From NCBI GenBank assembly GCA_016214265.1, contig JACROU010000045.1, positions 1,072 to 65,071 of the forward strand: a stretch of DNA of 64,000 nt. The letters run 5' to 3'. Positions 1 through 33,597 of this stretch are shown here, piece by piece (position 1 is the first letter of the stretch; the number at the start of each line of letters is the position of its first letter). The notes below the pieces were generated by a model that saw only the letters and a list, made by a program, of their open reading frames with translations, had not been told where the DNA came from and ran no database searches. The position numbers and the translations under genes were made by a program. The DNA comes from Candidatus Omnitrophota bacterium. Lineage in GTDB: Bacteria > Omnitrophota > Omnitrophia > Omnitrophales > JACROU01.

Positions 1-1010
1 CGAATGGCCTCGCCTTTTTTCCCGCCCGTCGCGACCAGAACAATTTCGCGCGCGCGGCGAACCTCACCGGCCAACGTCAGCGCTTTGACCGGAACCAAGT
101 TTATGTTTGTGAAATACCGGGAATTATCAAGAATGGTCGGCAGAGCAAGGTGAACCAGCTTGGCTCCCGGCTCGAAAAATTCAGCCTCGTCTTTGAGAAT
201 AAGATTTTTCATGAGATGCGCAGGGATCTGGGCCAAAATTTCTTGTGCTTTTTCACGAGTCAGATTACGGATGTAAAAGATGGTGTTCTGATGATCCAGC
301 AATCGCCGGCCCAAAATATCCAATTCGGCTCTGAGGTCTCCACGATCCGCATCGGGACGATATTTGGCAAGTTCGTCGACCAAGTCTGAAGAATTCCCCA
401 AATTACTTCTGAGCCTCAGACGCAGCTCAAGAGCCCGGGAAATCGCCTGACCAAGCTCGCCTTCGGCCACATCTAAGCCGACGGTAAACTCATTAAAATC
501 GCGGAGTGTCAGCTCGGATATTTCTCGAGCCGGCTCAACGAACGCGAAATGCCCGTCCTTGCCGATGCCGAGAAGCTGCCAGTCGATGCCGCCCTTCTCG
601 CGGATTTTCGCCAGATATTCTGAAATTTCTATTCTAGGATCCTCGGTCTTACCACGAAACAGATGTGTGCTCTCACGCTTGAATGCCCGGGCCGGATCAA
701 TTTCCCGGAGCCGCGCAAACAGATGCCCCTCCATATAATACCGGTAGCTTTGAACGTGCTCTGGACTCAATCCGAAATACTCATCCAGATTAAAAGTAAC
801 AACACGGGAAAAATCGATACTGGAATCGCGGCGGAACATCTCGACCACTTCGTCATAAACCGATTCCATCGTCCCGCCAGTCGCAAGGCCAAGCACCGCA
901 TCGGGCTTCGTCTTCACCACCTGAACCAGCCGCTCTGCCACGTCCTTCGGCAATTCATTTTTATTTTGAATGACTTGAAGTTTAATTTTTCCGGGAGGAG
1001 TGATTGAATC
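1..1010 (-). other. glucosamine-6-phosphate deaminase / 6-phosphogluconolactonase (NagB/Pgl)-like domain, truncated by the window edge
   Basis: AVLGLATGGTMESVYDEVV, VVTFNLDEYFGL, IDWQLLGIGKDGHFAFVEP (revcomp of cggctcaacgaacgcgaaatgcccgtccttgccgatgccgagaag at 531-575), ...ILDNSRYFTNINLVPVKALTLAGEVRRARNIVLVATGGKKGEAI at 1-60. Confidence 0.6.
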
Positions 1011-4000
1011 GGATTGACCTAAACTCAAACCGTTAGAGGAAGACTTCGTTCGCTGATCGTACGTATTCCTGATAAATACTTCTAATTCAGACTCGAATGA
1101 AAATCCTTCATGACTTTTTGCAGCTTGATAAATTTCTTCCTTCAAAGCTGGCGGCGCTCGATTGGGCAGCAATTCAAAAACCATTTCGCGCGTGATCCGA
1201 ATTCTTTCTTTCCGGACCGGTTCCGATTCTTCCGGGCGTGTCATCACAGCCCCGCGATTTAAAGATTCCGCGGCAGTTCCAGACACAGCGGCTTTTCCTT
1301 TGTATATATGTATGACAAGGGCATCCAACTGTTCACGAACTAATCCCGCTGGCACACTTGGATCAAGACCGATCCCAAACTCCCCGTCTATTTGCGTCAT
1401 GAAAACATTTTCGTTATTCGTTCTATCATGAATCGCCTGATGGGAACCGACAAAATTTTCAGTAACGTGTTCTATTTTTACCTCATAGCCATGCTTTCCA
1501 AGTTTATCCGTAATTAGTTTCTTCCATTCCTCAACAAATCCGCCCAACCGCCGCTCCTTTTCACTCACATTCAATTTTTCCCATTCAGAATAAGCCGAAC
1601 CGGAATAAACACGTGTGGGATAAGGCATCACATCTTCGACAAAAGTCATTACTTCCGTTCCCGGTGAAGCCGGAACCATGAGGCGGCTGAATTCCCGGAA
1701 CACATCATCCATTTCCGCAACCGTCATATAACCTAGAGCATCAAAACCAATAATACGTTTAAACGTATGTTCTGGTTTCGGAATTTTTCTCCAATCACCA
1801 GCGATCGTTTCAATTCGCGGATAACGTGATTGAATATCTTTCAAAGGTCCGGTCATATAATCCGTGACTGACATTTTCTGAACCAAGCTTTCCGGCAGCG
1901 GAGAAACCTCCCCTGTCTTATCCTCTAAATAAACAAGGTCCCGTCCCTGCCCCACGCCGATATCGAGCACACGTTCTCCTTCCGACAAATTTTGATCGAA
2001 AGGATTCCAAAATAATCGCGTTAACAACTGAGCGCGGGCCCGCTCCACTCTTTTCGTCGCTGCTTCTAACTCAAAATAACGGGAACGGGCATAACCTTTA
2101 ACAACAACACGCTTGATCAAATTCAATTCGCCGGCATAAAGATATCGGGCCAAAGCTCCGTCATCCAAAACAAACGGCTGAGATAAGAAATATAAATTGT
2201 TCTGATTGTCTACAAGATGGGTGCCTGTTACCATCGCGGTTTTACGATCCCCCTCCGTAAGTACGGGCTGGATGTTTCGAACGGGTTTAGTTTTCAGATC
2301 AGTAACCAAAGTGAAGACAATCTTACGCCCGCCCATTAATACAACCTGCAGGGAAACAGTGGCTAAATTTTCCCCGATACGCAACTGACTCCATTTTTCC
2401 GGATTGCGAAGCTCCAGAAAAACTTGTATCTCTTGAATATCATTGGGAGTAACCGGAAAATGCGCCGCTAACGTCAACGCTTTTAAAAACACCGACCCCT
2501 CTTCAGCAAGAATAAAATCTGATACGGCATCCTGAAACGCAGCGTATTGCTTCCGGGGTTTTTTCTCACCGCTGGCATTTTCGAATATCTTTCTTACTTG
2601 TTTTTCCAATTCAACAGGAATCCGGGTGATTGCAGATGGTTCGGTAATCACATTTTCATCTTGGCACCACAATGCGGGCATAAAAGTCTTGTCGGATTTC
2701 ACGAAATGCGTCTTGGATTGCAACCTCCACACATCAGTTAAATCCCCTTCAAAATCCTTACCCAAACTCGCGCCGCCTGCCGGGATGCCCGCTTGCGGGT
2801 CGGCTGGCGAGTTCTTGGTGGAGCGCGACAGTTCAGAAATTTCTTTATTGGAAATTGGATTTGATCTTGCTCCCGACGAACCCAAAGATTTTCCGGAGGA
2901 ATTAAAATCGGGCATGGCTTCGGGAATAGAAGCTGTCGGCGAGGCAAATGGAATATCATTTTTGGCGACCGCGGGAAAAACGGATCCGTATTCGCGTTTC
3001 AAAATCTGGCGAAACGCGTCGTATTTCCCGTCCGCTTTCAGCGCTTTAGCAATTTGGGCATGAATCCCCCCGAGCGCCGCGAGCACAGTCGTCATTTTTC
3101 CGTCCCACGTCAAAAGCGGCGCGATGGCGTTGCCGTCCACACTCGCCGACTCGACAGTGCCAAAACGGCTTTGCATTTTGGGACCCTTGAGCATCACATC
3201 AAGCCAGGCCAAGGCAATTCCTGAGGGTCCGGCCAACATCACCGGAAACACCGCGTACGGCGCCACCACTTTTTTATTTTTGACGGGTTGAAGCGCGAGC
3301 TCCGGAATTCCGGACTCTGCCAGATACGCGGGATTCTGATTGCCAGTCACCACATCGTGCGCGGACGCAAAAAGTCCCGGAATTTTATTCAGAGCCGAAT
3401 TCCAGGTTCTGGCCCTTTCTCCATTTTCAAAAATCTGACGGACTGTGGGGTCATCGGTATACGGAAGAATTAAATATTTCCACATTTCGTGCGATGAAAA
3501 CCAAAATCCTTTGAGTGTCGTCAGTCGGCCTTGAGGCGTTTTGAAATCCGAAGGCTTCAGATTGGGACGCTGATTGGCCCAAACCTTGTCCGCTTCCTTC
3601 GCGTCTTTCCATCGGCCAAAAAGAGTAATGAAGAAGGTAAAGAGCTCACCCTCATAAGGGTCTGCCAGAAAATTCGTATTGCTCAAATAATTTTCCTGGG
3701 AAGGTGCGGCATTCACATTTTTGATTTTGACCTCACCGCGAATTTTTCCGCCGCCCTCGTAGAACATCGTGACGGCATTCTGAGCCATCATATCGAACCG
3801 GGTTTTGTAACGTGCCGCTAGATCTTTGTGACCTTTCGCATCCAGCGCGTGATAAGCGGCATAAAGCGACCAGGCCAGCTGGCCGTTATCGAGCGCGGGC
3901 ACGCGATCCTGCCAGTCCCGCGTAGGCTGCATTCCACCATCGCTGACTAAAAACCAAGGCAGAAAACCGCCGAAACCGGGGTAGGTGCGACTGAATTTTT

Positions 4001-7000
4001 CGTAACTCGTAATTTTCTTCGTGAGAATGTCAACGGCCCGGGCTTCGGCCTTCGCGAGATTATCCGGGGACATAAACAATTTCACCCGGTCGTCTTCCCC
4101 CAGCACCGCGAGTGCCGCCAGCGCCACTTGAAGCGATTCTTTAGATGCCGCGCTCCAATTTCTTGGGCCACCACGCAACTCACCAGTCTCAAAATCAATC
4201 GAATGGCCGTCATAAGTCAGTCCGGAACCGGCGTTGTACGCAATTCCCGGCTGATGAAACTGTCCCTCCCAATACAACAATTTCCGAAGGTAAGCATCCG
4301 CCAATTCTTTTTTGCCGATCAAATCTTCCGCTTTAAACTCGGGGGCAAATCGATAATTTCCTTTAGGTTCCTGCACCGGCATTTTCCCGGCAAACGCAAA
4401 AGCGGCCGCCACGCCAATAAGAGCCAGAAACTCTCTTCGCGAAAAGCTTTCTTCAGAATTTCCGAGACTTGAAGCTTGAGAAACGGGGAAAAAATGAGTC
4501 ACGATTTTGCTAACCAGAGGATGAGAAATATTCAATGATTTTCCCATCAGCCGCACCATTTGATCCAATAATGCCTCAAAACTTTCCTTGGCATCCCAAG
4601 AAAGGTTGCCAAATAATCGAATCATGGCTTTTTCAAAATTTTTCTGATTAAGAACCGCCTCTTGTTGATGAACAGCTTCATTGACCGGCTTATTCGGTTC
4701 CGACGCGCAAATTTGTGTTGTAAAACTGGGACTATGAACTAATGCTCCAAAAACTTCGGGAATGCGATTAATCGTGGCATTACTAACAACAGCCGGCGAT
4801 ATTTCAATTAATGCCTGGCCGACCTTAATAAAGTGTTTGATGAGCTCTTGTTCATCCTCTCCCTCATTGGCCCCCAAACTTTGCGCGGCTGTGACCACCG
4901 TCCCCGCATCGGAGCCATTTTGAAAAACTTTTTCGATATGTTCCGCGTCGGTGATAATTCCACGCCGCGCGCCGCCATCCTTAACGAAAGCCAGCGTGGC
5001 TTCCACTTTGGGCCCCATGCTGCCGGGAGGAAACTCCCCTTCTTTATAATATTTTTCGAGTTCGCTCACGGAGGGACGAACCAACTCTTTTTCGGATAAC
5101 TTTTTGAACTGCACTTTGACACGCGGAACGCCGGTCACAATCAGAAGATTTTTCAGATTCAATTCTTTCGCCAGAAGCGCGGAACTGCGGTCTTTGTCGA
5201 TCACGCCCTCCAGCGCTTCAATCACATCGACTTCTCGGTAGCGGATCGGCACTCCGCCGCCACCCACGGCCACCACAATTTTTCCGGCCGTGAGGGCTTC
5301 GCGAATATCCTGGAGATCTTTCGGAAAAATTGAAAGCGGTTTGGGCGAAGCCACCACCCGGCGCCAGCCTTTTCCCGGAACATACGTAAACTGCCATCCT
5401 TTTTCTGCCATCAAAGCATTCTTCTGATCCTCTGAATTGTATGGACCAATGGGTTTGTCAGGATGATGAAACGCTTCATCGTTTGGATTTACAATCACCC
5501 GGGTCGGATTCAGATAAATTTCCGGCAAATTCGGAAGCTCATCTTTTTTGATTTCTTCGTAGGCGCGTAAAATATATTTTCTGAAAATTTCGGTCTGAGT
5601 TTCAGCCACCAATTCATTCAGTCGCGGCATTTGCTGAATCTCTCCGGCTTTCAATTGTTTTTCTTTTTCAAGCCAGAGGTCGCCGACTTGCGGACCATTA
5701 CCGTGTGTAATCAAAAGCGGAGTTCCGGGCCGGTAAAGCCGCAGCACGCGCCGGAGCATTTCTTTGACGTTGCGGTACTGCGCCTCATCTGTGCGAATAT
5801 CTTTTAGCGGTCCAGACTCAGCAATGAAGGCATTTCCGCCGAGCGCCACTGCCGTTCCTGAAAGCCCGACTGCACCCAAACTGGAGCCCTGAACCCGCGC
5901 AAACGGAAACTCGATTTTAAAAATGGGCGCCTGTCCTCCGGAAGTCAGCAACAACATATCTCCGCCGTAACTTTCGATGAGTCGTTTGGATAAATTCAGC
6001 CCCACCCCGGCTTCCGGACGCGTCTTGTCATCGGACTTGCCTTTTTTGAATAACTGCGGAATTGTTTCGGAATTAATGGGAGCACCGTTGTTGCCGACAA
6101 ATAACACCACCTTGTCGGTGTTTGGGTCATGACCGGCCTCGATAGTTACTTCAGTCGCATGATGTTTTTTCGCATTCCGGATTAAATTACCCAGAACAAA
6201 AATCATTCCCAATTTGGAAACACGAACTGGAAGCGGAGCATCAGGAATAGATACCTTGATGTCAAAAGAGCTCTCGGTTTTTCCTTCGGCTTCCGCATTA
6301 ATTCTTTCTTTGTTTAAATAAAGATGCCGGGTGATTGAAACGATTTTTTTGACATCTACAAATTTTTCGTTCACTTCCCTAGCTGCTCTGGAACGCCGAA
6401 TCACATCCATCAACTCTTCAAGACTTTCGCCCAACAAAACAATCACCGCAATTTTTTCGAGAACAAGCATTTCGATAGTGGTCAGCAGCAGGTTTTTAGG
6501 CAAATCCTGCTGCGCCTCCCTCGCAAAACGAACCATCAAACTCAAATTCAGGAGAATCCTCCAGATTTTTTTGAAAAAATCGTCCACTTTTGTATTCGGA
6601 TTTGGCTCGATCTCCTCTTTTCTCAGATCATTGTTGAATCGGTAAACCAGGTTGGAACCAGCTTGATGAATCTTTCTCAATTGCACTTCTTTCCCAACAC
6701 TAAATATTCCTTCGAGAGGCAAGAACTTCGAAATAGAACCCAAATGGGTATGAATGGGATTCAGCCATCCGGCAAGCTCATGGAAAGCCATGCCGACGAT
6801 TAGCAGCTGATCGGCCTTGGAAAGCTCTGTTCGGATAATACGGAAAGAACTCTTGCCTTCAGGGTCCTTCAACAACTCTAAAGCAACGCTTCTGTCATTG
6901 TTGCGAGGAAAATCCCGGTTCATGTCAAGAACGACATATCCAAAATCCGGACGTTCTTGTGCGTCCAAAATCAAATTGGCGCCGAAAATGCTGAAACGTT

Positions 7001-9434
7001 TTTCTTTCAATCCCCAAAATCCGAATTTTTTTGCCACATCGTCCCTCGGGGGAGTGTGGCCAGAAAATAAAGCGGCCAGTTTCATCCGGGAAAGATAGGT
7101 CGCCAAAAAATTGGCATCGTACTTTCGGAGAAAAAGGAGAATGTACAGCGCATGATTTTCTTTGTAAAAGTAACCGTCTTTCAGCAAGTTAATTATCTGA
7201 TTCCAGCTTTTTAATCTAAAGGAGGGCCTGGCATGGACCAGCATGACATGCTCATCACCCATCCGAGCGCGGATTACGATAGGCCAGCTTTTAAAAAAAT
7301 CCGACATCGCAATTAAAATTGCGGGGCCATGTTCTTCAAAATAACCATAATGCTGCTTAATATAATTTTCAAAATCCGATGTCTGAGATTGTTTTATCTT
7401 GGAATCAGGCGGGGCTCTTAAAATTTCGACCTGACTTCCAGCAATATGCGACAACTCATGATTGCCAAGTACCGCATGCACATTCCGGGGAAAGCCGATT
7501 TTCAGTTTCATAAAAAGCGCCAGCGTCGCAAGGGTTTGTGTCTGGGCGTCCTCTTGTTTCATCAAATCCCCTGAAGGATGAATCAGGTCGCCTAAAAATA
7601 CCAGGTGAAGACCGCCATCCTGAAGTCCCGTGAGAATGCCCGGCTCGCGGAGCAGCGAGGTTAAATGATAGAAATGTCCCTGCATATCCCCCACCACCGC
7701 CAATTTTTTTCCGGTTTCAATATTCAAGAGCGCGCCAGGTTTCATTTCCCAATCCAGCGGACGCTCACTTTCCGAATAGGTCATCGCTTCCCTGGCGTCT
7801 TCAAACAACTGTTTCAGGCCGCCAAGATTAAGTTCATCTAAAAACTTTTTAGGATCTGTAGGAATTTCAAATTTCGTTTTTGCTTTTTTTATCTCCCCCA
7901 GACTTGCCGCGGCGGCGGATACAATAGCCATGCGCGTGGCAACGACAGTTTCTCCGAGGCTGGCCGCTAGCGCCGGACGACCCTGAGCCAGCTGGGCCAG
8001 CACCAATCCGGAAGTTTTGATGCCACGCGTCATCGATTGGCGGTAAATCTTCGAGCTGTCACCGTCAACGTTGGGACGAATCGTGACATGCGGAATTTGG
8101 CGATTGTTGAAATATTTGTTCAGACCCTCAGTATGAAATCCACCGGTTATCAAAATGGCGCGGGAATTCTTCGATTGCCGAAGCTTTTCTTCAATTTTTT
8201 TCATAAAAACGTCTTCGCGTGCCTCTGCGGCTGCATAAAATGAATAGGCTGGAGAGACTATTGGCCGGCCGCCCTTTAGCTCTTCCCACTCTTTTCGGGT
8301 CAACTCAAGTGACACGAGTCCGCGAAGTAAGCGAAAATTTCGGACTTCTTGAACAAAACTTTCAGACACCATCGCGGCAAGAAGCAACTCCATCAGCCGT
8401 TTGATTTCTTCAAAGAGCGGGGCACTTTCGATTTCGTACTGAAAAATTCGGTTGCGCGCATAACGCGTAAAATTGGGATAATTCTCGAACTTGAACCCGC
8501 GGGGCGCGGCGGATTGATACAGTCTTTCGGTAACATGACGGTAATTACACACCCCGTCAACTTCGTCGCCACCCCTCTCAAGATGAGACTTCATCCAGTT
8601 ACCAAATCTTTGTTTGATCTCAGCCTCTTCTTTGCTGGCTTTTTCAAAATCAATCAGCCCTTCTTCGGCCTTCAGCTGAAACAGACGGACTAAATTGGGA
8701 AATTCGATTTGTTCTTTGGCATCCGCCAAATCACGATAGAGATACATTTTTGTGAAACGGCTCAAATCTGCCGTCACGGATGACCAATTCGCGTTCTTCC
8801 GGTCAAAGTCCAAATATTCCCGCAACAGAATCAACGCGTCTTTTTTCAACTCCCGAGAAGCTTTCCGGTCCAGCTGTTGACGGATTGTTTCCAAATTTCT
8901 TTTCGATTCGGTTTCATGACGCATCACGTCCCTGAAAAGATCAAAGTTTTTCCGGTAAAGCGCGGCATCTTCGATACCAATGGCATGAAGTCCCTTCGTA
9001 TTCAAGGCAAGCTCCGAGCCCGTGATTTCGCCCAAATCAACCAATTTGTCGATGAGCTTATGGTTCAGCTGCGGATTTTGAAGAAATCGGAGATACCGGG
9101 AATCCAGCTCCTCGACCGCGCCTTCAACAAAAACAGTTGTGATTCCATAATTTTTGAAAAGATATTCAATGATTTTTTCGGTATTTCTTTGTCCAGAAGG
9201 ATTTCCGTGAGCATCTTGAATATGAATCAAAAAGGGGCGGTCAGCAGAATGAGCCAGCGAGGCGGATTCGATGGCACCTAACTCAACGGGAATTTGAATT
9301 TGTGGAAGCGGCTCAACACGGACTTCTGAAGGAAGATTGCCGTAAGCGATGGTGTTGGACAAAAAACACACAATGACCGCAAACGCAACAATACGCTGGC
9401 TTAATTTTGCGAGCCTTCCTGGCTGTGATTGCAT
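1..9434 (-). CDS. giant multidomain protein; 5' end (ATG) at 9434, 3' end beyond the left window edge, at least 3144 codons in window. Domain order: signal-anchor, metallophosphoesterase, GHKL/HATPase_c, carbamate kinase-like, Tat-like hydrophobic segment, (alpha/alpha)6-like, SAM methyltransferase-like, NagB/Pgl-like
   Basis: No complete ORF of 60 aa or more is listed on the minus strand across 1-9434 except two short off-frame ones, and plus-strand ORFs are all short. Minus-strand translation starts at ATG 9434 (AGGGTGGA 11 nt upstream, in-frame TAA at 9462-9464). It reads MQSQPGRLAKLSQRIVAFAVIVCFL... and stays open; motifs checked against the plus strand at 7456-7484, 6075-6098, 5680-5711, 4382-4447, 3841-3920, 1937-1978 and 531-575 all fall in the same frame (first codon base congruent to 2 mod 3). 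Confidence 0.7.
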   Translation of the reverse strand, partial: MQSQPGRLAKLSQRIVAFAVIVCFLSNTIAYGNLPSEVRVEPLPQIQIPVELGAIESASLAHSADRPFLIHIQDAHGNPSGQRNTEKIIEYLFKNYGITTVFVEGAVEELDSRYLRFLQNPQLNHKLIDKLVDLGEITGSELALNTKGLHAIGIEDAALYRKNFDLFRDVMRHETESKRNLETIRQQLDRKASRELKKDALILLREYLDFDRKNANWSSVTADLSRFTKMYLYRDLADAKEQIEFPNLVRLFQLKAEEGLIDFEKASKEEAEIKQRFGNWMKSHLERGGDEVDGVCNYRHVTERLYQSAAPRGFKFENYPNFTRYARNRIFQYEIESAPLFEEIKRLMELLLAAMVSESFVQEVRNFRLLRGLVSLELTRKEWEELKGGRPIVSPAYSFYAAAEAREDVFMKKIEEKLRQSKNSRAILITGGFHTEGLNKYFNNRQIPHVTIRPNVDGDSSKIYRQSMTRGIKTSGLVLAQLAQGRPALAASLGETVVATRMAIVSAAAASLGEIKKAKTKFEIPTDPKKFLDELNLGGLKQLFEDAREAMTYSESERPLDWEMKPGALLNIETGKKLAVVGDMQGHFYHLTSLLREPGILTGLQDGGLHLVFLGDLIHPSGDLMKQEDAQTQTLATLALFMKLKIGFPRNVHAVLGNHELSHIAGSQVEILRAPPDSKIKQSQTSDFENYIKQHYGYFEEHGPAILIAMSDFFKSWPIVIRARMGDEHVMLVHARPSFRLKSWNQIINLLKDGYFYKENHALYILLFLRKYDANFLATYLSRMKLAALFSGHTPPRDDVAKKFGFWGLKEKRFSIFGANLILDAQERPDFGYVVLDMNRDFPRNNDRSVALELLKDPEGKSSFRIIRTELSKADQLLIVGMAFHELAGWLNPIHTHLGSISKFLPLEGIFSVGKEVQLRKIHQAGSNLVYRFNNDLRKEEIEPNPNTKVDDFFKKIWRILLNLSLMVRFAREAQQDLPKNLLLTTIEMLVLEKIAVIVLLGESLEELMDVIRRSRAAREVNEKFVDVKKIVSITRHLYLNKERINAEAEGKTESSFDIKVSIPDAPLPVRVSKLGMIFVLGNLIRNAKKHHATEVTIEAGHDPNTDKVVLFVGNNGAPINSETIPQLFKKGKSDDKTRPEAGVGLNLSKRLIESYGGDMLLLTSGGQAPIFKIEFPFARVQGSSLGAVGLSGTAVALGGNAFIAESGPLKDIRTDEAQYRNVKEMLRRVLRLYRPGTPLLITHGNGPQVGDLWLEKEKQLKAGEIQQMPRLNELVAETQTEIFRKYILRAYEEIKKDELPNLPEIYLNPTRVIVNPNDEAFHHPDKPIGPYNSEDQKNALMAEKGWQFTYVPGKGWRRVVASPKPLSIFPKDLQDIREALTAGKIVVAVGGGGVPIRYREVDVIEALEGVIDKDRSSALLAKELNLKNLLIVTGVPRVKVQFKKLSEKELVRPSVSELEKYYKEGEFPPGSMGPKVEATLAFVKDGGARRGIITDAEHIEKVFQNGSDAGTVVTAAQSLGANEGEDEQELIKHFIKVGQALIEISPAVVSNATINRIPEVFGALVHSPSFTTQICASEPNKPVNEAVHQQEAVLNQKNFEKAMIRLFGNLSWDAKESFEALLDQMVRLMGKSLNISHPLVSKIVTHFFPVSQASSLGNSEESFSRREFLALIGVAAAFAFAGKMPVQEPKGNYRFAPEFKAEDLIGKKELADAYLRKLLYWEGQFHQPGIAYNAGSGLTYDGHSIDFETGELRGGPRNWSAASKESLQVALAALAVLGEDDRVKLFMSPDNLAKAEARAVDILTKKITSYEKFSRTYPGFGGFLPWFLVSDGGMQPTRDWQDRVPALDNGQLAWSLYAAYHALDAKGHKDLAARYKTRFDMMAQNAVTMFYEGGGKIRGEVKIKNVNAAPSQENYLSNTNFLADPYEGELFTFFITLFGRWKDAKEADKVWANQRPNLKPSDFKTPQGRLTTLKGFWFSSHEMWKYLILPYTDDPTVRQIFENGERARTWNSALNKIPGLFASAHDVVTGNQNPAYLAESGIPELALQPVKNKKVVAPYAVFPVMLAGPSGIALAWLDVMLKGPKMQSRFGTVESASVDGNAIAPLLTWDGKMTTVLAALGGIHAQIAKALKADGKYDAFRQILKREYGSVFPAVAKNDIPFASPTASIPEAMPDFNSSGKSLGSSGARSNPISNKEISELSRSTKNSPADPQAGIPAGGASLGKDFEGDLTDVWRLQSKTHFVKSDKTFMPALWCQDENVITEPSAITRIPVELEKQVRKIFENASGEKKPRKQYAAFQDAVSDFILAEEGSVFLKALTLAAHFPVTPNDIQEIQVFLELRNPEKWSQLRIGENLATVSLQVVLMGGRKIVFTLVTDLKTKPVRNIQPVLTEGDRKTAMVTGTHLVDNQNNLYFLSQPFVLDDGALARYLYAGELNLIKRVVVKGYARSRYFELEAATKRVERARAQLLTRLFWNPFDQNLSEGERVLDIGVGQGRDLVYLEDKTGEVSPLPESLVQKMSVTDYMTGPLKDIQSRYPRIETIAGDWRKIPKPEHTFKRIIGFDALGYMTVAEMDDVFREFSRLMVPASPGTEVMTFVEDVMPYPTRVYSGSAYSEWEKLNVSEKERRLGGFVEEWKKLITDKLGKHGYEVKIEHVTENFVGSHQAIHDRTNNENVFMTQIDGEFGIGLDPSVPAGLVREQLDALVIHIYKGKAAVSGTAAESLNRGAVMTRPEESEPVRKERIRITREMVFELLPNRAPPALKEEIYQAAKSHEGFSFESELEVFIRNTYDQRTKSSSNGLSLGQSDSITPPGKIKLQVIQNKNELPKDVAERLVQVVKTKPDAVLGLATGGTMESVYDEVVEMFRRDSSIDFSRVVTFNLDEYFGLSPEHVQSYRYYMEGHLFARLREIDPARAFKRESTHLFRGKTEDPRIEISEYLAKIREKGGIDWQLLGIGKDGHFAFVEPAREISELTLRDFNEFTVGLDVAEGELGQAISRALELRLRLRSNLGNSSDLVDELAKYRPDADRGDLRAELDILGRRLLDHQNTIFYIRNLTREKAQEILAQIPAHLMKNLILKDEAEFFEPGAKLVHLALPTILDNSRYFTNINLVPVKALTLAGEVRRAREIVLVATGGKKGEAI
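1500..2300 (-). other. class I SAM-dependent methyltransferase-like domain within the giant ORF
   Basis: Motif I ERVLDIGVGQGRDLVYL verified at 1937-1978 (plus strand gtcccgtccctgccccacgccgatatcgagcac), followed by RIIGFDALGYM and EFSRLMVPASPGTEVMTFVED. Confidence 0.5.
2700..4300 (-). other. (alpha/alpha)6 six-hairpin glycosidase-like region within the giant ORF (family unassigned; DUF3131/GH144-like is a guess)
   Basis: Segment ...DGGMQPTRDWQDRVPALDNGQLAWSLYAAYHALDAKGHKDLAARY... verified at 3841-3920; aromatic/Gly-rich helical repeats. Assignment is by resemblance only. Confidence 0.3.
4382..4447 (-). other. internal twin-arginine-like motif plus hydrophobic segment, SRREFLALIGVAAAFAFAGKM
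   Basis: Codon-by-codon revcomp of 4382-4444 gives S-R-R-E-F-L-A-L-I-G-V-A-A-A-F-A-F-A-G-K-M in the ORF frame. Confidence 0.5.
4865..5900 (-). other. carbamate kinase-like (amino-acid kinase family) domain within the giant ORF
   Basis: VALGGNAF near the start; signature LLITHGNGPQVG, read as revcomp of gccgacttgcggaccattaccgtgtgtaat at 5680-5711; KIVVAVGGGGVPI; GSMGPKVEA; ends at ...GSDAGTVVTA (about 4870-4925). Confidence 0.65.
5950..6260 (-). other. GHKL / histidine-kinase-like ATPase (HATPase_c) domain within the giant ORF
   Basis: N-box-like LGNLIRNAKKH, G1-like VLFVGNNGAPI (plus strand aatgggagcaccgttgttgccgac at 6075-6098), G2-like GVGLNLSKRLIESYGG. Confidence 0.5.
7040..7710 (-). other. 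calcineurin-like metallophosphoesterase domain within the giant ORF
   Basis: Motifs VVGDMQGHF (about 7672-7698), FLGDLIHPSGD and VLGNHE (7467-7484, plus strand ctcatgattgccaagtac), then SGHTP (about 7045-7062). Confidence 0.6.
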
Positions 9435-9470
9435 TCGAACGAGATCCACCCTTAGAGGAATTTAGGGGGA

Positions 9471-25515: not shown

Positions 25516-25950
25516 TCATTCAATAGGATTACCTGCAGCATTATTAAAACGAACAACCCCTGTTTCATCAACAAAAAAAGTATTCACTCCTGTAACGTTC
25601 GCGGTGACTGGAGCTGCCGTGCATGTAAATTGATTCGCATTCACTAAGGTATAAGTAAATGTATACCCCTGTTTCGTTCCGCCAGCCAAAACCGCATCGA
25701 TATAAGGCGGAGTTGCAGCTGAAAGCGCGACCAAATTCGCCGGATAAGTCGGCGGATTCTGCGTCATTCGAAAACTTTCACAACCCGTACTAATCGTTCG
25801 AAGAGAAGATTTCGCAGTTGATTCGTTCGCCCCCACTCTGGCCCGCAGCAAAACAGGAAACGAAATTGCCACCAGCAGCCCCAGAACACCGGCAACAATC
25901 ATGATTTCAACGAGTGTAAATCCTTTTTTCGAAACTAATTGAGATATCAT
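25516..25950 (-). CDS. type IV pilin / pseudopilin-like protein (prepilin N-terminal methylation motif)
   Basis: KKGFTLVEIMIVAGVLGLLVAISFP class-III signal, about 120-aa globular part. Confidence 0.75.
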   Translation of the reverse strand: MISQLVSKKGFTLVEIMIVAGVLGLLVAISFPVLLRARVGANESTAKSSLRTISTGCESFRMTQNPPTYPANLVALSAATPPYIDAVLAGGTKQGYTFTYTLVNANQFTCTAAPVTANVTGVNTFFVDETGVVRFNNAAGNPIE

Positions 25951-26070: not shown

Positions 26071-29000
26071 TTATTCTGATTCCTCGGCGGATCTGAATGT
26101 TTTTACTGCAGTATCTGCTTCTGGTGCTGAAATAGTGACCCGGCCTTTTGAAAACGAATTAGCACGAAGTGAATTTGCAATATTTTTTCGAAGTGAAGCA
26201 TCGTGCTTCTTGAGTGGACTTTGAGTCACATCCCGGAATACCCGGTTGATAATTAAGCCGCCGCGCGGCTCGTCAAGATCGGCCGGCAGGACAAGTTCAT
26301 TTTGTTCCAACGTCGCTCCGACCACGCCTTCGAACGCCTGACGCAGCATCCAGCCGGCAGCTCCGGTATAGCCGTGCCAGATCATGCGTCCCTGATCAAA
26401 GTTGGTCAGAATGTCCGCAGATTGTTTGTTCGGCTGTCCGCCATAAATTTCAATCTCCTGTGGAACCACGTGAGAAATCGGCGAGATTTTCAACCAAAGC
26501 CGGTAGGCAATCTCGCGATACTCTTTAGCTTTCGCCTCGTTACCCTGACTTTGGAATTGTTCGGACAGAATGCGTGCCGCACGAACCAGCCACTGAACGC
26601 CGTGGCAATACATTCCGTTTTCACGAACGCCTTCCGGATATTTACTGCTTCTGCCTAGATAAGGCTTTGTGTCTTCCCGAAGCGCCGGCCATCCGAGCAA
26701 AATAGCATTTTCTTTTTCGAGCACGGAGAGCGCGGTATTAAAAACGGTGAGCGCACGCTCTTGATTGATGCCTGCCATCACGGCCCATGCCGCTGTGAGG
26801 GCGTCAATTTCCCAAACACCGCTTCCCTTAATACCGATTTCGGTACCATCATCGTGAAAAGCGCGCAAATACCGGTCTTCCCTCCACGTTTTTTCAAGCG
26901 CCTCGCCGAGAGCCGTCATTTTCTTTTGATAATGCTCTTTGCGTTTCGCGCCGTCTTTTTTTTCGATAATATCGAGCATATTTTTCAGGATGTAGTACAC
27001 GAAAAATCCCAGCCAAATACTTTCTCCTTTGCCTTCACTGCCGATCTCATCCAATCCATCATTCCAGTCGCCGGTTTGAATCAGCGGAAGACCATTTTTC
27101 CCCGTGCGTTTTTCGAGCACAAGATCCAATGACCGCAAACAGTGGCGATACACAGAATCGGACCGGGTTGACCGGTGATAAATATGTCCCCAGCCGCCCT
27201 TGTTTTTGGGCAGTGGTGCATAAGGAAATTCCGCAGAAACGTAAGACGTCACTTCATCGAGAATGGAATGATCTCCAGTGGCCCGAACATACTCGACCGC
27301 GCCCCAAGCCAGCCAAACAGGATTGTCTGAGGCTTGCGACCGGCAGGAAAACGCCGTACGTCCATCGGTGAGCGTGAAAAACCAGTGATACACATCCCCC
27401 TCGTAAAACTGATGGGAAGCATGAAGAATAATCTGTTTTCGGGCCAGCGCCGGATCCACCCAAATTAAATTCACGGTATCCTGCAACTGATCGCGGAAAC
27501 CATACGCTCCGCTAGTTTGATAGAAACCACGGCGCGCCCAAACACGTTCTGCGATAGCCTGATATTTGAGCCAGTTTTGCAAATGATCAAATTCCGGATT
27601 GTTGGTGTTAATTTCAGCCGTTTTAATGAGGCTGAGCCACCAATTACGCGTCTCTTCAAGACTATTTTGAACATTCTGAATATTTTTGTACTTCTGAACA
27701 ATCTGACGCGCTTCTTTCTTGTCATCAGCCTGTCCCAAAATCACGGAGATCGTGCATTCCCCATGAGCGGGAATTTCCACGCTTCCCAGAAAACCGGCGA
27801 TCTGTCGGATGTCAGTATACTGCGCAATATCCGGCCGGCCTTCTTCGACAAAAAATGGACGCGTAACGCCACGGCCGGAACCAAAAAACCGCCCGCGTAA
27901 AGTTTCCACGCATTTCGCCGGAATCGACATGGAGGCAAACGCCCAGCCGGAGCGGAAAATATTGCGCGGATTTTCAAAATAAAGCGCTCCCGAAATTTTG
28001 TCATGTTCCACCGGCAAATTCCCTGCTCGTTCCGGCTGGAAGGATAGCACCATCTGAAAATAAGGGGCCACGCGCATCCGCCTCGATTTATCCGAAGTGT
28101 TTTTTACGGTTAACAAATACACTCCTGTTGGTTCCGTAGGAGGAACAAACACGGTCAACTCCGTCGAAAGCGAACCATCGGTCATACGGAAAACGGCCGT
28201 TCCATCAACACCGAATTCGGATTCGTGCTTCGCGGTTGTTTTGTTCAGCGGATGATACGTAGGCGAAAACCATTCATTGCTGTCCGGATCGTAAAGATAA
28301 ATAGCTTCCGCTGGAATTTCTTTCGTCACTGTATCCGGCCAATCAGGTGTCAGTCGATTCTGCTGTGAGTTGCCGTTACACGAAGTGTGCAATCCGCGGT
28401 TCGTCACCATCACCGAATGAATTTCATTCGACATCGCGTGATCATACGGTCGCGGCGTAAACGGTGTATGCACCAGCAGTTTTCTTCCCTGGTCGATGTA
28501 TTCGGAATAAGGTTGCGGGGTTCCGGGCGGAATTTCACCGTGACCGATCAGCGGGAATTTCTTTTTCACCGGGGCACCAGACAGAGTTCTATCCACATGG
28601 GGCTTCAAATGTTTCTGAATCAAATCAAGAGCGGCTTCTTTATTTTTCGCATAGCCGACCATCAACCGGACGGACTTGGAAGCTCTTGCCTCTACGGTCA
28701 CGCCCAGCATCAAACTGCCAATCGGGTCAAATGTCGGATACGGAGCGGTATCGCGAGATTCCAAAAAGTCGAAGGTCTCGAAAATTCTTGGTTCCCAAAT
28801 ACTGCGGGCACGGCCAATAAAATCCATGCGGGAAGTGAGAAAACCTTCCGGAGCAATATCCGCCGCCAAAATACCGATAGATTTCGTCCCCTTTTGCCAC
28901 GCCAGGACGGCATTGGCTTTACTGACATATTCCATTTCGGGGAACAGCCGGGAGTACTGCGTGTGGAAACGGTCATGAATGCCACCTTGCAACACCCACT

Positions 29001-32000
29001 CCAGATAAGGAACAACTTTTAACTGACGGTTCTGATCGGTTAAGTTTTCCACCGTGACATTCCACAATTCCGCAGTGGTTTCCAAATCGGGCAATCGGAT
29101 TTCAATTGTTGTCCGAATTCCGTTAGCAATGTTGACTACCTTCAACATACTATCCGTTTTTTCAAAATGAGAGGTTTCGAATTTTTCTTGCGGAAAATTA
29201 CCGATAATCGGCCAAGAATGTTTGTTTCCGGAATCAGACTGGGACGGATCCACGAGAAACAGAATTCTCCCGCACGGATCGATAATGTCGTAAGTGCGGC
29301 GCGTAATATCACATTCTTTTCCGAGAAGTTCGCTGTAAATCTCACCGTTTTCTTTCAGTGCAACTTTGTATTCCCTATTTTCCAATTCATAACTGGCGAT
29401 GCGGCGCTGGCGCGAACGATGACCGAGCGCACGAATCAGACACGCCACTCCCGTACACACCAATACGCAGGCGGCGATAAACAAGGCCATTTCGTACCAA
29501 GTTAGCGACTGCAAAAATGCCAGAAAACCTTTTCCCCGGTTCGCATTTTGAATAGCTTCGGAAGTGCTCCAGGCATAATCCCAGGCTTCACCGCGAGGAA
29601 GATAAAACGGAATCAACAGCGGACCCCATGTGGTGAAACGTTTCACTGCTTCGGGAATATAACGCTGTGCTGCGGCAGGTCCGATGAATTTTGCAATGCG
29701 TTCGTCGAGCTTGTCCATTCCGAGAAAGCTCAAATTCACCAGTGTGGCGACTCTCAGCCCCATGTGATCCATCCAAATCAGGATGCGGAAGAAATCAAAC
29801 GCCAGCACGTAAATAAACATCTGAAGACTCCAAGCCTGGAAAGTGCTTGGTGACATCGTCAAATTGTTGTAGGTCGCGAATAGGGTACGAATTGCGCCGT
29901 CTTGGTTGTACCACGTCGGATTCGGCATCATGCGCAGGAATGTAAAAATGATCGGCGCCATCCACAATCCCCACCGTAGAACGTAAATCATATGCTCGAC
30001 CAGCGTGGCAAATCCCGCCTTCGAGAAGAAAAACTTGATCGGCGCTTTGTCCTTCTCAAAGTACGCCTGCATAAACACTTTGTTGATCGCGAAGAGCCAC
30101 GCCGCGATCGACCAATTGATCACGCCCGCCAAGGATTCGGTGAACAGCAATTTGACGCCACCCGTGTATCCGCCCAAATCGATACGGCCCCATTTGTTGA
30201 TCAGCGGATAGGTGATGTAATCCACGCGCGGAATTCCAGCACTAAGATAAAGTTTGAATTTTTCGATAATGACTGGAACCTGCAGAGCGTCCAGATAAAA
30301 TGCCGCCGCGCTGCCGATAAATGCTCCAAGAAGCGAGTCAACAAAATACAGTCTCCAGGTCTGTATCCGTCCTTGGCCTTTCATTGCATACAAAATATCG
30401 CGCAAAACACTCACCCCGCCGGAAGCCAGAAAACCGATCAGAAGTCCGAAAGCAATTCGGGCTGACATTTCCACGCGGAACATGCCATTCGTTACCATGT
30501 ACGCAAAACCGAATCCCACCACCGCGCCCCGTAAATACAAAATCGCGTTACGGTAGCTATATGCCGCGCGGTCAAAAAACCGGATACTGCCATCAAACGT
30601 TTCGATAATAGTAGTAATTAATGGAAAGACCAGCGCGCCGGAAATGATGCCGATCAGAATCGGCATCGCGGCCATAATCTTCTGCACTGCCGTAGAACCG
30701 AGAAGCATGGACAACACATACAGAATGGCAACTAAAATACCGCTGTATGCCATACCCTTTCGCATGCCGGTGTTGACATGATTAAAAATACTCGTGTCAG
30801 TCGGGGCAATCCGTTTGCCGCCATCCAAAGCAATTCCGGTGATAAGATAAACTTCTCCCCACAATCCCGCGTAAGAAAGCATTGTGGTGATCACAGCAAC
30901 CAAGCCCTTCAGCAGCACTGGCAGTGACGCAACCACGGCCACGGACCCCAAATCCGCAATTTGCGGAGCAATCACCACACCCAACGAAACGAGGAAAATA
31001 TAGAAATGCGCCTTGCCGGAATTTAGCCACTTCCCTTTTGTAACTAAACTAATACCATTCGTCACCGCTTCATTGAAGACAAACGCAACAAGAAGCCGGC
31101 CGGTCACCGCGAGGATCAGCGGCCAAGCGGCCAGGACGCCGCCGGTAATTCCGTTCAGGACGGTTTGAATCAACGTGATGTTTTCCACCAACAAGAGCCA
31201 GCTGAAAAGATACGGCGTGACAACGGTCACAACGGCAGTAACAATTCTTAATTGTTTTCCGGAAGAACCGATCGTGCTTGCGTTCAGAATGTGATAAACG
31301 AGGAAGGTAATCGTAGCGATGAGATTGTTCAGCATGAAAAGCTGATTCCAGCTGCCGGGAGCCGCCAAGAGCGCCACTTTGCTAGACGATGCGGCCAAAA
31401 GTCCGGTCGCCAAAAGATTCTGCAATAGTTCACCGGCCGACAAATTTCTACCGGCAAGCTTGAGCATCAAGAGCTCAGGAATCAAAACGCCCAACAAGGC
31501 CAATCCGAGGAAATTGAAATTAAAACCCGCATCCAAAGGACTGGTTGTGCCCAGGGCAAAAATATTCACGGCAGCACCGCCCATCAACACAGCAATGACA
31601 CCGAAAAAGAAATCCATTTTCAGCGCGGAACCATTTGCCCTAGCGCGCACAGCGATATTAAAGCGTTCCACGTTGCTCAATTTCAATTTATTGGAATCCC
31701 CGCGGCTCAACAAACCGCCAAACAGCGAGGCCAACAAGAAAAGAAGAAAACCGGCCAGAACGATTAGACCAATTTTTACAAACGTAAGATTTTTCTGCAG
31801 AAAACTGAGATGGTTAAATTCAACATCAAAATAGAACGTTCCACTCGCCGCCTTGACATCCTTCGCCGGCGCCGCAGCCGCAGTCTGATTGGGACCAACA
31901 GCCGTAGATAACTTGGAACTGCCCGCCATCGGGCTGACGACAAAAACCACCTCGGTAAGCTGTCCGATCGTGCCCCAGCTGATCGGTTCGCGCAATGAAT

Positions 32001-33597
32001 TCCGTCCCGACTTCAGGTTGAGCGGAATGGTTTGCATCCCAGTGGTCCCCTTCACCTCAACTTTCACCGAAACTTCCAACAACTGCTCGCCCTTCGGAAC
32101 ATTCACGCCGATTTTGACAGCATCCGCACGGAACGAATTCAAATCGGGATGATAACTTTTTGTCCAAATCCCCACGACCGATCCCACAGGAACAGAATAA
32201 TCAAATTGCCAAACATCTTTATCCAGAGTTTCATCAAAAGTATTTTTGATCGATCCTTGCGACTGTCCGATATTGAACACGCCCTTTTCGCCGGCATCAA
32301 GCAGACTGAAGTATGGCGTAATCATGGAAACATCCGTTTTCGCGGGAGTCGAAAGCTTCACAAAATCCACAGCCAGGGATAAAATACCCTTCGCCACGTC
32401 GACATCCCCGACCGGAGCAAGAATAAAATCCACCCCTTTTAATTCGCCCAACTTTGTCCTATCGATTGATGTTTTAATCGAATTCCAACCGGATTTCAGC
32501 TGAACCGGAATATTCTGAACGCCTTTGGCCCCCTGGATCTGAGCTTCTAAAGAAATTTGGCTGGCCTGGCCGGAATTGGAAAGACGAACGCCAATTTTAG
32601 CTGTGTTAACAGAATCGGCGGTTAGAGCAGCCGGAAAATTCTTGGTCGAAATGGTTAATGCCGATCCCTTCGACAATGTGTAATCGAACTCCAAAATGTC
32701 TTTATCCACCACTTCATCACAGGTGGGAACGACGCGACCTTTCGCTGAACCGGACGGGGTCACAATTTTCTCTTTAGCGGACAAAATGCTAAATGCCGAA
32801 ACGACTGGGACCGGAGCGCTGGTCACTGGTGCAACAGGTTTTTCAGAATTTTCAGAATTAACAGCAGTTTTTCGGGGCTTAAAGGTTTTTACCTGAGGCT
32901 TGGCGACAACAGTTTGACTCACGGGGGCCTTACTACTATTAATAGAAGTAATAGAAGCCGGGGCGGTCACCGGGGCAGAACTCGCCTTCTTCGCAGGCGC
33001 CTGATTCACAAAATCGATAGCAAAAGATAACGTCCCCGTTACCATGTCACCTGATCCGGCCGCGCCCACTACGAAATCCACTTCACTCAAATCCCCGATT
33101 TTTTCCCAATCGATGGGCTGACTAATTGAATTCCAACCCGATTTCAGCTGAACCGGAATGCTTTGAACACCGGCGGATCCTTTGAAATCTAACTTGAGCG
33201 AAACCTGACTCGCCTGCTCGGCACTAGCCACTTTGACGCTAATTTTCGCTGTTTTAACCGAAGTCGCCGTCAAAGTAGCCGGAAAATTTTTGGACCAAAC
33301 GGTAATGGCTGCACTTTGAGGTATCGTATAATTGAATTCTAGAATATCTTTGTTGGTGGATTCATCAAAAGTGGAAATAACTCTTCCCTTTGCGGTGCCT
33401 TCATTGGAAACACCTTTTTGACGCGCATCGAGAAGATTAAAAGAAGAAGAGGAACTGCTGGCAGCGGAAACGTTAGCAAAAAAACCAGCAACAAAAACCG
33501 TCAGGATTGAAACAACAAAAGGGTTAAAACACAATTTTTTGCAAAGGGATGTTTTGCGGTACTCCATAATTTTCCAACTCAATCGCATCTCAACCAT
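26071..33597 (-). CDS. giant (2508 aa) membrane protein: signal peptide, 3 tandem carbohydrate-binding-like repeats, about 15-helix polytopic membrane region, C-terminal GH94 (cellobiose/beta-1,2-glucan phosphorylase-like) domain
   Basis: Complete ORF in the track. C-terminal motifs GAYGFRDQLQD (revcomp of about 27481-27515) and IQTGDWNDGLD are GH94 catalytic signatures; hydrophobic helices from about aa 600 to 1340; three repeats of about 150 aa at the N-terminus. Confidence 0.85.
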   Translation of the reverse strand: MVEMRLSWKIMEYRKTSLCKKLCFNPFVVSILTVFVAGFFANVSAASSSSSSFNLLDARQKGVSNEGTAKGRVISTFDESTNKDILEFNYTIPQSAAITVWSKNFPATLTATSVKTAKISVKVASAEQASQVSLKLDFKGSAGVQSIPVQLKSGWNSISQPIDWEKIGDLSEVDFVVGAAGSGDMVTGTLSFAIDFVNQAPAKKASSAPVTAPASITSINSSKAPVSQTVVAKPQVKTFKPRKTAVNSENSEKPVAPVTSAPVPVVSAFSILSAKEKIVTPSGSAKGRVVPTCDEVVDKDILEFDYTLSKGSALTISTKNFPAALTADSVNTAKIGVRLSNSGQASQISLEAQIQGAKGVQNIPVQLKSGWNSIKTSIDRTKLGELKGVDFILAPVGDVDVAKGILSLAVDFVKLSTPAKTDVSMITPYFSLLDAGEKGVFNIGQSQGSIKNTFDETLDKDVWQFDYSVPVGSVVGIWTKSYHPDLNSFRADAVKIGVNVPKGEQLLEVSVKVEVKGTTGMQTIPLNLKSGRNSLREPISWGTIGQLTEVVFVVSPMAGSSKLSTAVGPNQTAAAAPAKDVKAASGTFYFDVEFNHLSFLQKNLTFVKIGLIVLAGFLLFLLASLFGGLLSRGDSNKLKLSNVERFNIAVRARANGSALKMDFFFGVIAVLMGGAAVNIFALGTTSPLDAGFNFNFLGLALLGVLIPELLMLKLAGRNLSAGELLQNLLATGLLAASSSKVALLAAPGSWNQLFMLNNLIATITFLVYHILNASTIGSSGKQLRIVTAVVTVVTPYLFSWLLLVENITLIQTVLNGITGGVLAAWPLILAVTGRLLVAFVFNEAVTNGISLVTKGKWLNSGKAHFYIFLVSLGVVIAPQIADLGSVAVVASLPVLLKGLVAVITTMLSYAGLWGEVYLITGIALDGGKRIAPTDTSIFNHVNTGMRKGMAYSGILVAILYVLSMLLGSTAVQKIMAAMPILIGIISGALVFPLITTIIETFDGSIRFFDRAAYSYRNAILYLRGAVVGFGFAYMVTNGMFRVEMSARIAFGLLIGFLASGGVSVLRDILYAMKGQGRIQTWRLYFVDSLLGAFIGSAAAFYLDALQVPVIIEKFKLYLSAGIPRVDYITYPLINKWGRIDLGGYTGGVKLLFTESLAGVINWSIAAWLFAINKVFMQAYFEKDKAPIKFFFSKAGFATLVEHMIYVLRWGLWMAPIIFTFLRMMPNPTWYNQDGAIRTLFATYNNLTMSPSTFQAWSLQMFIYVLAFDFFRILIWMDHMGLRVATLVNLSFLGMDKLDERIAKFIGPAAAQRYIPEAVKRFTTWGPLLIPFYLPRGEAWDYAWSTSEAIQNANRGKGFLAFLQSLTWYEMALFIAACVLVCTGVACLIRALGHRSRQRRIASYELENREYKVALKENGEIYSELLGKECDITRRTYDIIDPCGRILFLVDPSQSDSGNKHSWPIIGNFPQEKFETSHFEKTDSMLKVVNIANGIRTTIEIRLPDLETTAELWNVTVENLTDQNRQLKVVPYLEWVLQGGIHDRFHTQYSRLFPEMEYVSKANAVLAWQKGTKSIGILAADIAPEGFLTSRMDFIGRARSIWEPRIFETFDFLESRDTAPYPTFDPIGSLMLGVTVEARASKSVRLMVGYAKNKEAALDLIQKHLKPHVDRTLSGAPVKKKFPLIGHGEIPPGTPQPYSEYIDQGRKLLVHTPFTPRPYDHAMSNEIHSVMVTNRGLHTSCNGNSQQNRLTPDWPDTVTKEIPAEAIYLYDPDSNEWFSPTYHPLNKTTAKHESEFGVDGTAVFRMTDGSLSTELTVFVPPTEPTGVYLLTVKNTSDKSRRMRVAPYFQMVLSFQPERAGNLPVEHDKISGALYFENPRNIFRSGWAFASMSIPAKCVETLRGRFFGSGRGVTRPFFVEEGRPDIAQYTDIRQIAGFLGSVEIPAHGECTISVILGQADDKKEARQIVQKYKNIQNVQNSLEETRNWWLSLIKTAEINTNNPEFDHLQNWLKYQAIAERVWARRGFYQTSGAYGFRDQLQDTVNLIWVDPALARKQIILHASHQFYEGDVYHWFFTLTDGRTAFSCRSQASDNPVWLAWGAVEYVRATGDHSILDEVTSYVSAEFPYAPLPKNKGGWGHIYHRSTRSDSVYRHCLRSLDLVLEKRTGKNGLPLIQTGDWNDGLDEIGSEGKGESIWLGFFVYYILKNMLDIIEKKDGAKRKEHYQKKMTALGEALEKTWREDRYLRAFHDDGTEIGIKGSGVWEIDALTAAWAVMAGINQERALTVFNTALSVLEKENAILLGWPALREDTKPYLGRSSKYPEGVRENGMYCHGVQWLVRAARILSEQFQSQGNEAKAKEYREIAYRLWLKISPISHVVPQEIEIYGGQPNKQSADILTNFDQGRMIWHGYTGAAGWMLRQAFEGVVGATLEQNELVLPADLDEPRGGLIINRVFRDVTQSPLKKHDASLRKNIANSLRANSFSKGRVTISAPEADTAVKTFRSAEESE
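26250..29400 (-). other. GH94 glycoside-phosphorylase-like module (N-terminal beta-sandwich, helical linker, (alpha/alpha)6 catalytic barrel, C-terminal beta domain)
   Basis: GAYGFRDQLQD and GDWNDGLD motifs; WNV...YLEWVLQGG N-terminal sandwich-like region; established GH94 layout. Confidence 0.75.
29580..31800 (-). other. polytopic membrane region (about 15 predicted TM helices) of the 2508-aa protein
   Basis: Continuous run of 18-25-residue hydrophobic segments separated by short loops (e.g. IGLIVLAGFLLFLLASLFGGLL, FFFGVIAVLMGGAAVNIFALG, MAYSGILVAILYVLSMLLG). No soluble DxD glycosyltransferase domain seen. Confidence 0.6.
31810..33444 (-). repeat. three tandem in-frame repeats of about 150 aa each encoding a beta-rich putative carbohydrate-binding module (aa about 52-198, 268-415, 429-596)
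   Basis: Protein-level repeats, e.g. DILEFNYTIPQSAAITVWSKNFPATLTATSVKTAKISV...IPVQLKSGWNSISQPIDWEKIGDLSEVDFVV versus DILEFDYTLSKGSALTISTKNFPAALTADSVNTAKIGV...IPVQLKSGWNSIKTSIDRTKLGELKGVDFIL versus DVWQFDYSVPVGSVVGIWTKSYHPDLNSFRADAVKIGV...IPLNLKSGRNSLREPISWGTIGQLTEVVFVV. Confidence 0.75.

Follow-up and report, generated by a model that had tools for sequence, protein, structure and literature searches.

What might a bacterium do with a glycoside phosphorylase that is built into a large membrane protein? The question is raised by a gene located in a 64,000-nt stretch of the Candidatus Omnitrophota bacterium contig JACROU010000045.1, referred to here as the window, in which an intact open reading frame (ORF) at positions 26071..33597 of the minus strand translates into 2508 amino acids (aa) followed by a stop codon. 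Numbered in amino acids of this product, the protein comprises, in order, a signal peptide, three repeats with the CBM11 fold of carbohydrate-binding modules (CBMs), a membrane domain with some 19 helices and an entire GH94 module; all its features are given below in window positions of the minus strand. The GH94 part belongs to a known kind, but neither the membrane domain nor the architecture as a whole is described in Pfam, NCBIfam, the PDB or the literature searched. The literature on GH94 in combination with transmembrane proteins or Omnitrophota contained no description of repeats, membrane domain and GH94 in one protein and no case of a glycoside phosphorylase integrated into a polytopic membrane domain, and to our knowledge no such enzyme is known. 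We put at about even the chance that the protein represents a new class, a phosphorylase fused to a membrane domain of new fold that would conduct a beta-1,2-glucan chain, with translocation coupled to phosphorolysis in either direction.

The C-terminal part carries the two GH94 signatures that an initial sequence-only reading of the locus had picked out, GAYGFRDQLQD and TGDWNDGLD, and Pfam finds GH94 domains around them. The supersandwich domain (PF06165) is matched in two stretches, the best being aa 1715-1955 (27733..28455; E 6e-65, 219.6 bits against a cut-off of 23), and the catalytic (alpha/alpha)6 domain (PF17167) covers aa 1986-2427 (26317..27642; E 5.9e-66, 223.3 bits against a cut-off of 27), so that both elements by which CAZy defines a GH94 domain lie above threshold. 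The top sequence match in the PDB is Cgs, the synthase of cyclic beta-1,2-glucan (E 7e-112), followed by cellobiose phosphorylases at about 1e-38. Residues 1405-1656 (28630..29385), the equivalent of the GP1 subdomain of Cgs, align to positions 1544-1795 of 8rf9_A, and residues 1713-2450 align to positions 2050-2771, covering GP2-GP3. In Cgs, the phosphorylase part (GP) extends from residue 1536, includes a Rossmann-like insert at 1847-2012 and uses D2528 as its catalytic acid (PMC10901819). This Asp is the second Asp of GDWND in the numbering of 8rf0 and pairs with D2180 of TGDWNDGLD, the predicted catalytic acid of the 2508-aa protein (codon at 27058..27060). The module begins 17 residues beyond the last transmembrane helix, and the Rossmann-like insert is absent from it, since 56 residues stand where Cgs has 254.

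Conservation within the family points to a working enzyme. An Asp equivalent to D2180 is found in 82 of the 82 family sequences having a residue at that position, while the 85 family members compared show no variation at R2035, D2036, D2180, H2332 and T2411. The motifs GFRD, RENGxYxH and YTGAAG are common to the query, Cgs and the Clostridium thermocellum cellobiose phosphorylase, and the predicted phosphate-site residues R2035, H2332, T2411 and G2412 match both of these enzymes and are invariant in the family; from cellobiose phosphorylase structures, we take the Arg of GFRD, the His of NGxYxH and the Thr and Gly of YTG to be the residues contacting phosphate. No loss of catalytic residues was thus found, D2180 being the counterpart of Cgs D2528 and the motifs being invariant in 85 members. 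Because these key residues never vary, GH94 is expected from sequence to be active across the family and not a scaffold relic.

Resemblance to Cgs raises the possibility that the protein is simply an ordinary Cgs homologue, as suggested by the labels (‘cyclic beta-1,2-glucan synthetase’ or ‘glycosyl transferase family 36’) attached to its relatives in the JGI and NCBI pipelines and by the alignment of the C-terminal 1100 aa, in which the catalytic Asp and its surrounding motifs are identical. The match is, however, limited to the GP part. Cgs possesses six transmembrane helices, an N-terminal domain, GT84 and GH189, all of these domains being cytoplasmic, none of which is present in the 2508-aa protein, whose GH94 module also lacks the Rossmann-like insert and is instead preceded by the 19-helix domain and external CBM-fold repeats. 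Neither Pfam, applied to aa 1-1400 with E values up to 10, nor PDB sequence searches detected a GT84 or GT2 glycosyltransferase, and the PF10091-type (GH189) cyclisation domain is likewise absent from the protein by Pfam and PDB alignment. The longest non-membrane loop within the membrane domain measures about 73 aa, leaving no space for a GT-A or GT-B domain, and no relation of the N-terminal 1400 aa to Cgs emerges, not even from a profile search at E up to 10. Transferase and cyclase are both hallmarks of a Cgs, and as searches for them found neither, the protein is no Cgs; refuted by the Pfam, PDB sequence and membrane-profile searches, this explanation retains a very small probability. The claims of the sequence-only reading that no recognisable GT84 or GT2 domain exists, and that the architecture differs from that of Cgs/NdvB, are accordingly borne out, and this architecture recurs across phyla. 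[quoted passage not shown]

The membrane domain (aa 604-1390, 29428..31788) is a conserved, non-repetitive family of about 790 residues, to which Pfam, NCBIfam and the PDB contain nothing related in sequence or fold. A hydropathy scan reveals a dense run of hydrophobic helices over aa 609-1388, and about 19 transmembrane helices, 16 of them firm and the last three uncertain, are counted within the domain, which raises the figure of about 15 given by the sequence-only reading. In 113 aligned sequences, the 19-helix topology obeys the positive-inside rule, with the same doubt over the last three crossings: loops assigned to the inside have a net charge of +0.4 to +2.9 in 10 of 11 cases, the exception being a 3-residue loop before the doubtful helix 18, and those assigned to the outside stay at or below +0.4 up to helix 16. 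Under this topology model, the repeats would face the outside and GH94 the cytoplasm. Conservation reaches at least 95% at 90 positions across the same 113 sequences, down to 32% identity, and these near-invariant positions include 10 Trp as well as Asp, Arg, His, Asn and Gln, located in helices and on both faces. Most of the 90 fall within a core at aa 1195-1340 (29578..30015, verified by translation), which contains the motifs VLRWGLWMxPII, WYNQDG, WMDHMGLRVATLVNLSF and RFTTWGPLLIPxxxPRGxxW, the first and last also being given in the forms VLRWGLWMxP and RFxTWxPLLxP.

Searches for relatives of this domain in Pfam, NCBIfam and the PDB were uniformly negative. The whole-protein scan yielded zero Pfam matches in aa 1-1400 and NCBIfam nothing significant on the protein; at lax thresholds, with the whole protein, each repeat and the membrane domain alone as queries, Pfam and NCBIfam gave only chance-level matches, such as bPH_10 (E 0.006), CG6151-P and a T6SS effector family (E 0.036). 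A profile built from aa 596-1400 and 17 trimmed homologues matched no PDB sequence up to E 10, and hhalign detected no internal duplication in the domain. The AlphaFold2 model is all-helical, with a mean pLDDT of 68 and good quality over the first ~620 residues, and Foldseek found no fold match for it at E <= 0.001. No fold or sequence was found in common with known glycan synthases or translocases, including GT2 of the BcsA type, GT-C, MOP flippases, Wzx/Wzy, ABC and RND systems.

At the other end of the protein, a Sec-type signal peptide region is recognized by hydropathy at aa 1-45 (33463..33597), with a hydrophobic core at aa 22-40 followed by VSA/AS, where the cleavage site is presumed to lie; homologues likewise begin with signal-peptide-like N-termini. 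Three repeats follow, at aa 49-204 (32986..33453), 265-421 (32335..32805) and 426-603 (31789..32322), which are mutually 38-53% identical. A Ser/Pro/Ala-rich linker, read from the translation, separates the first two (aa 205-264, 32806..32985), and the third, membrane-proximal repeat is the copy retained in single-repeat homologues. An Ala/Pro-rich insertion is also seen inside repeat 3 (aa ~560-585, window about 31843-31920), similar ones being present in the membrane-proximal repeat of several homologues. Structural comparison of the repeats retrieved a xanthanase (6fhn, score 13.6), CBM11 (1v0a, 12.6), an endoglucanase CBM (2c4x, 12.1), the GH144 beta-1,2-glucanase BDI_3064 (5z06, 12.0) and CBM30 (2c24, 11.1). 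The modelled repeats therefore have the beta-jelly-roll fold of solved CBMs, the same as that of CBM11, related beta-sandwich CBMs and the N-terminal domain of BDI_3064, at only 10-14% identity to these structures and below Pfam CBM thresholds, the top model being CBM_6 with E 0.097. By the fold and topology models, the three repeats are CBM11-fold modules on the outer face of the cytoplasmic membrane, as the sequence-only reading had proposed in calling them CBM-like and extracytoplasmic; the label is supported at the level of the predicted fold, with a putative sugar-binding role.

The family is neither rare nor confined to the source genome. A word-indexed search with the membrane domain retrieved 26 proteins, every named one from Omnitrophota, while 1.84 billion cluster representatives, searched exhaustively with the profile, gave 556 matches at E <= 0.001 and 262 at E <= 1e-30, with assigned taxa that include Beijerinckiaceae and Deltaproteobacteria. 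Long proteins among the profile matches always join the membrane domain to a C-terminal part of about 1100 residues, and the five that were scanned all have GH94 domains only. Relatives go by source names such as ‘cyclic beta-1,2-glucan synthetase’, ‘glycosyl transferase family 36’ and ‘GH36-type glycosyl hydrolase domain-containing protein’. A search restricted to the GH94 part listed 120 best matches, which hold only GH94 Pfam domains and mostly lie on short contigs; the named entries among those listed belong to Omnitrophota and PVC-group bacteria. Counting one genome per species, relatives are encoded in 188 species; Omnitrophota make up most of the best 80, alongside some Elusimicrobiota, Planctomycetota, Auribacterota, Sumerlaeota and Chlamydiota. 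Neighbourhoods and architectures were compared in these 80 best-matching loci. The protein is encoded by a single ORF in the 65 loci with a sufficiently long ORF, window included, with 0, 1, 2, 3 or 4 repeats in 6, 24, 18, 14 and 3 of them, respectively; in related loci the membrane domain measures about 730 aa and the C-terminal part, where complete, about 1080-1120 aa. An assembly artefact is excluded by the recurrence of the same single-ORF architecture in about 60 independent metagenome-assembled loci.

Two long contigs, L001 and L002, seemed to encode stand-alone membrane proteins, a candidate arrangement that was rejected because these are frameshift-fragmented copies of the same fusion. 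In L001 (10001-18206) and L002 (10001-14600), on ENA contigs with Planctomycetes-type genes (PSCyt2, PSD1, DUF1583), the gene is broken into several ORFs, most likely as a result of frameshift errors or pseudogenisation.

Which glycan is handled is suggested by the gene context in relatives. In a subset of them, the membrane-GH94 gene belongs to a tight same-strand cluster of six gene types, encoding a secreted CBM11 protein, a secreted CBM protein with a GH144-like part (matching the endo-beta-1,2-glucanase 5gzh at 3e-40 and 8xul at 6e-62 in the PDB), a TPR protein, the membrane-GH94 protein itself, a secreted protein or lipoprotein combining a CBM with a GH189-like part (matching the cyclase region of Cgs, 8rf9, at 1.4e-41 and the Thermoanaerobacter cyclisation domain TiCGS-Tg, 8wy1, at 4.7e-41) and two sugar ABC importer permeases. 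The GH189-like gene occurs in 14 of the 45 loci with at least 2.5 kb downstream, usually just downstream of the membrane-GH94 gene, and the GH144-like gene in 8 of the 37 loci where the upstream sequence reaches 4.5 kb or more. One locus has an OmpR-type two-component system immediately upstream of the cluster, and in the complete Omnitrophota chromosome CP070780.1 (locus L062) the cluster is extended by a solute-binding protein and a soluble 790-aa GH94. The gene is solitary, lacking any nearby transporter, in the window and in four other members looked up, of which one is from Beijerinckiaceae and one from Deltaproteobacteria. Cgs-type GH94, GH144 and GH189 are families tied to beta-1,2-glucan (PMC11842490), and their co-occurrence in relatives, as Cgs-type GH94, GH144-like and GH189-like proteins, makes beta-1,2-glucan the likely substrate.

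Some details of these neighbours can be recorded alongside. The soluble GH94 of L062 (945-3317), whose gene adjoins that of the sugar solute-binding protein, is about as similar to the GP region of Cgs (2e-159) as it is to cellobiose phosphorylases (1e-145). GH189-like genes with an N-terminal CBM11-type domain are located at L057 13737-15803 and L062 13502-15526, similar genes being those counted in 14 loci. Their exported form is worthy of note, as the GH189 domains in the literature cited are cytoplasmic parts of Cgs.

How, then, might the membrane domain and the phosphorylase work together? The membrane domain appears to be more than an anchor because the fusion persists, polar and aromatic residues are highly conserved and the gene stands alone in many genomes, and its most economical reading is glucan conduction to or from the GH94 active site. 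We tentatively favour, at somewhat less than an even chance, a membrane-integrated beta-1,2-glucan phosphorylase in which glucan translocation is coupled to phosphorolysis in the direction of uptake. Periplasmic or external beta-1,2-glucan would be held by the outer modules and threaded inward through the membrane domain, acting as a conduit for the chain, whose binding and translocation would be physically coupled to the GH94 reaction at the non-reducing end, amounting to group translocation of a glycan. Inside, the chain would be shortened glucose by glucose to alpha-glucose-1-phosphate; phosphorolysis would save ATP and could help ratchet the chain inward. Uptake is preferred because the genes sharing the operon have a catabolic look, with an importer, homologues of endoglucanases, another GH94 and a two-component system, and because GH94 equilibria and cellular ratios of inorganic phosphate to glucose-1-phosphate favour phosphorolysis in vivo. 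The hedged suggestion of the sequence-only reading, a phosphorylase coupled to translocation or binding of a glucan, fits all these findings, and the context of relatives narrows the glucan to beta-1,2-glucan; the coupling itself we infer.

Several observations weigh against uptake coupled to phosphorolysis. The assignment of beta-1,2-glucan as substrate draws on similarity and on the gene context of relatives, and the 64-kb window contains no GH144-like, GH189-like or ABC importer gene anywhere. The model is of moderate quality, prediction being poor over aa 1220-1357, where conservation of the membrane domain is highest, and the pore is hypothetical. In operons that already include a dedicated ABC importer, another route of import seems superfluous, and the neighbouring GH189-like gene, resembling a cyclising transglycosylase, fits synthesis equally. 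The same machine might indeed run in reverse, as a synthase-exporter fed by glucose-1-phosphate and requiring no nucleotide sugar, in which GH94 would extend the non-reducing end while the reducing end exits first. The outer CBM-fold modules would then guide the chain, as BcsB does for cellulose, and secreted GH189-like and GH144-like enzymes would cyclise or trim it into periplasmic beta-1,2-glucans, amounting to a split Cgs pathway partly outside the cytoplasm. The comparison with BcsA-BcsB is a mechanistic analogy only, based on periplasmic carbohydrate-binding-type domains at the outer mouth, as BcsA is a GT2 enzyme using UDP-glucose and resembles the membrane domain of the 2508-aa protein neither in sequence nor in fold. 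Export by synthesis agrees with the closeness of the GH94 module to the GP part of a synthase, with the secreted homologue of the Cgs cyclisation domain (8rf9 1.4e-41; 8wy1 4.7e-41) encoded next downstream in many loci, with the many genomes in which the gene is alone, as expected of a self-sufficient synthase, and with a chain-end geometry compatible with extrusion. There is also a precedent, since the GH94 enzyme SOGP makes beta-1,2-glucan in vitro (PMC3960220, PMC11842490). A priming mechanism is not evident, however, and the partners, comprising a solute-binding protein, two importer permeases, a soluble GH94, endo-glucanase homologues and a two-component system, resemble a utilisation locus. 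Net synthesis by a phosphorylase is moreover disfavoured, as is generally known, by cellular phosphate to glucose-1-phosphate ratios, and we regard this direction as rather unlikely.

It is similarly doubtful, to much the same degree, that no translocation takes place at all and that the membrane domain anchors, senses or scaffolds, GH94 degrading oligosaccharides brought in by other transporters. The phosphorylase might, for example, be placed under an ABC importer, or binding by the outer modules might be relayed. A complete ABC importer dependent on a solute-binding protein does occur in the same operon in some genomes, the GH94 part of Cgs offers a precedent in also serving as a scaffold (PMC10901819), and the hypothetical nature of the pore also speaks for such a role. 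However, a transporter adjoining the gene is absent in most genomes, the Pfam and NCBIfam scans show no known sensor or signalling domain, and an anchor would need far less than about 790 residues and 90 near-invariant positions, among which Trp and charged residues inside helices are numerous.

If coupling of translocation to phosphorolysis is true, it would constitute a third route for polysaccharides across membranes, besides synthase-coupled extrusion and transport driven by ATP or the proton motive force. The gene type is among the largest conserved genes in small Omnitrophota genomes and is also present in several other phyla, mostly in uncultivated lineages, and it could reveal how the host cells either consume beta-1,2-glucans from the periplasm of other bacteria or make envelope glucans of their own. 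If the reverse direction is true, the protein would, together with a secreted GH189-like enzyme, provide a nucleotide-sugar-free route to periplasmic or cyclic beta-1,2-glucans. Membrane-GH94 enzymes are also of interest for beta-1,2-glucan production, and ‘cyclic beta-1,2-glucan synthetase’, the name now assigned automatically, is a misnomer for this family.

A promoter and terminator scan around the gene in the window gave counts no different from those of shuffled sequence. Its neighbours are housekeeping genes, encoding a phosphoribosyltransferase, a sigma-70 factor, PPDK and GlyS upstream and a prepilin-type protein, CbiM and DUF4136 downstream, and no flanking gene of the window is common to the 80 related loci. 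The pilin gene that the sequence-only reading had noticed directly downstream is real, being a 144-aa ORF 120 bp away (25516..25950, minus strand) with an N-methylation motif (E 1.3e-5) and a weak ComP_DUS match, but it is not a conserved partner in the 80 loci, and a functional link was rejected, a single weak pilin-like match (L004) having been found among them. GC skew is negative in every 2-kb bin of window positions 1-64000 and nearly all long ORFs lie on the minus strand; transcription appears to run one way throughout the window. Giant genes have been reported for Omnitrophota, and a second very long ORF, of at least 3153 aa and an unusual mosaic in its make-up, extends over window positions 3-9461 of the minus strand and runs off the window start, with domains of the Metallophos, HATPase_c, amino-acid kinase, methyltransferase and glucosamine-6-P isomerase types.

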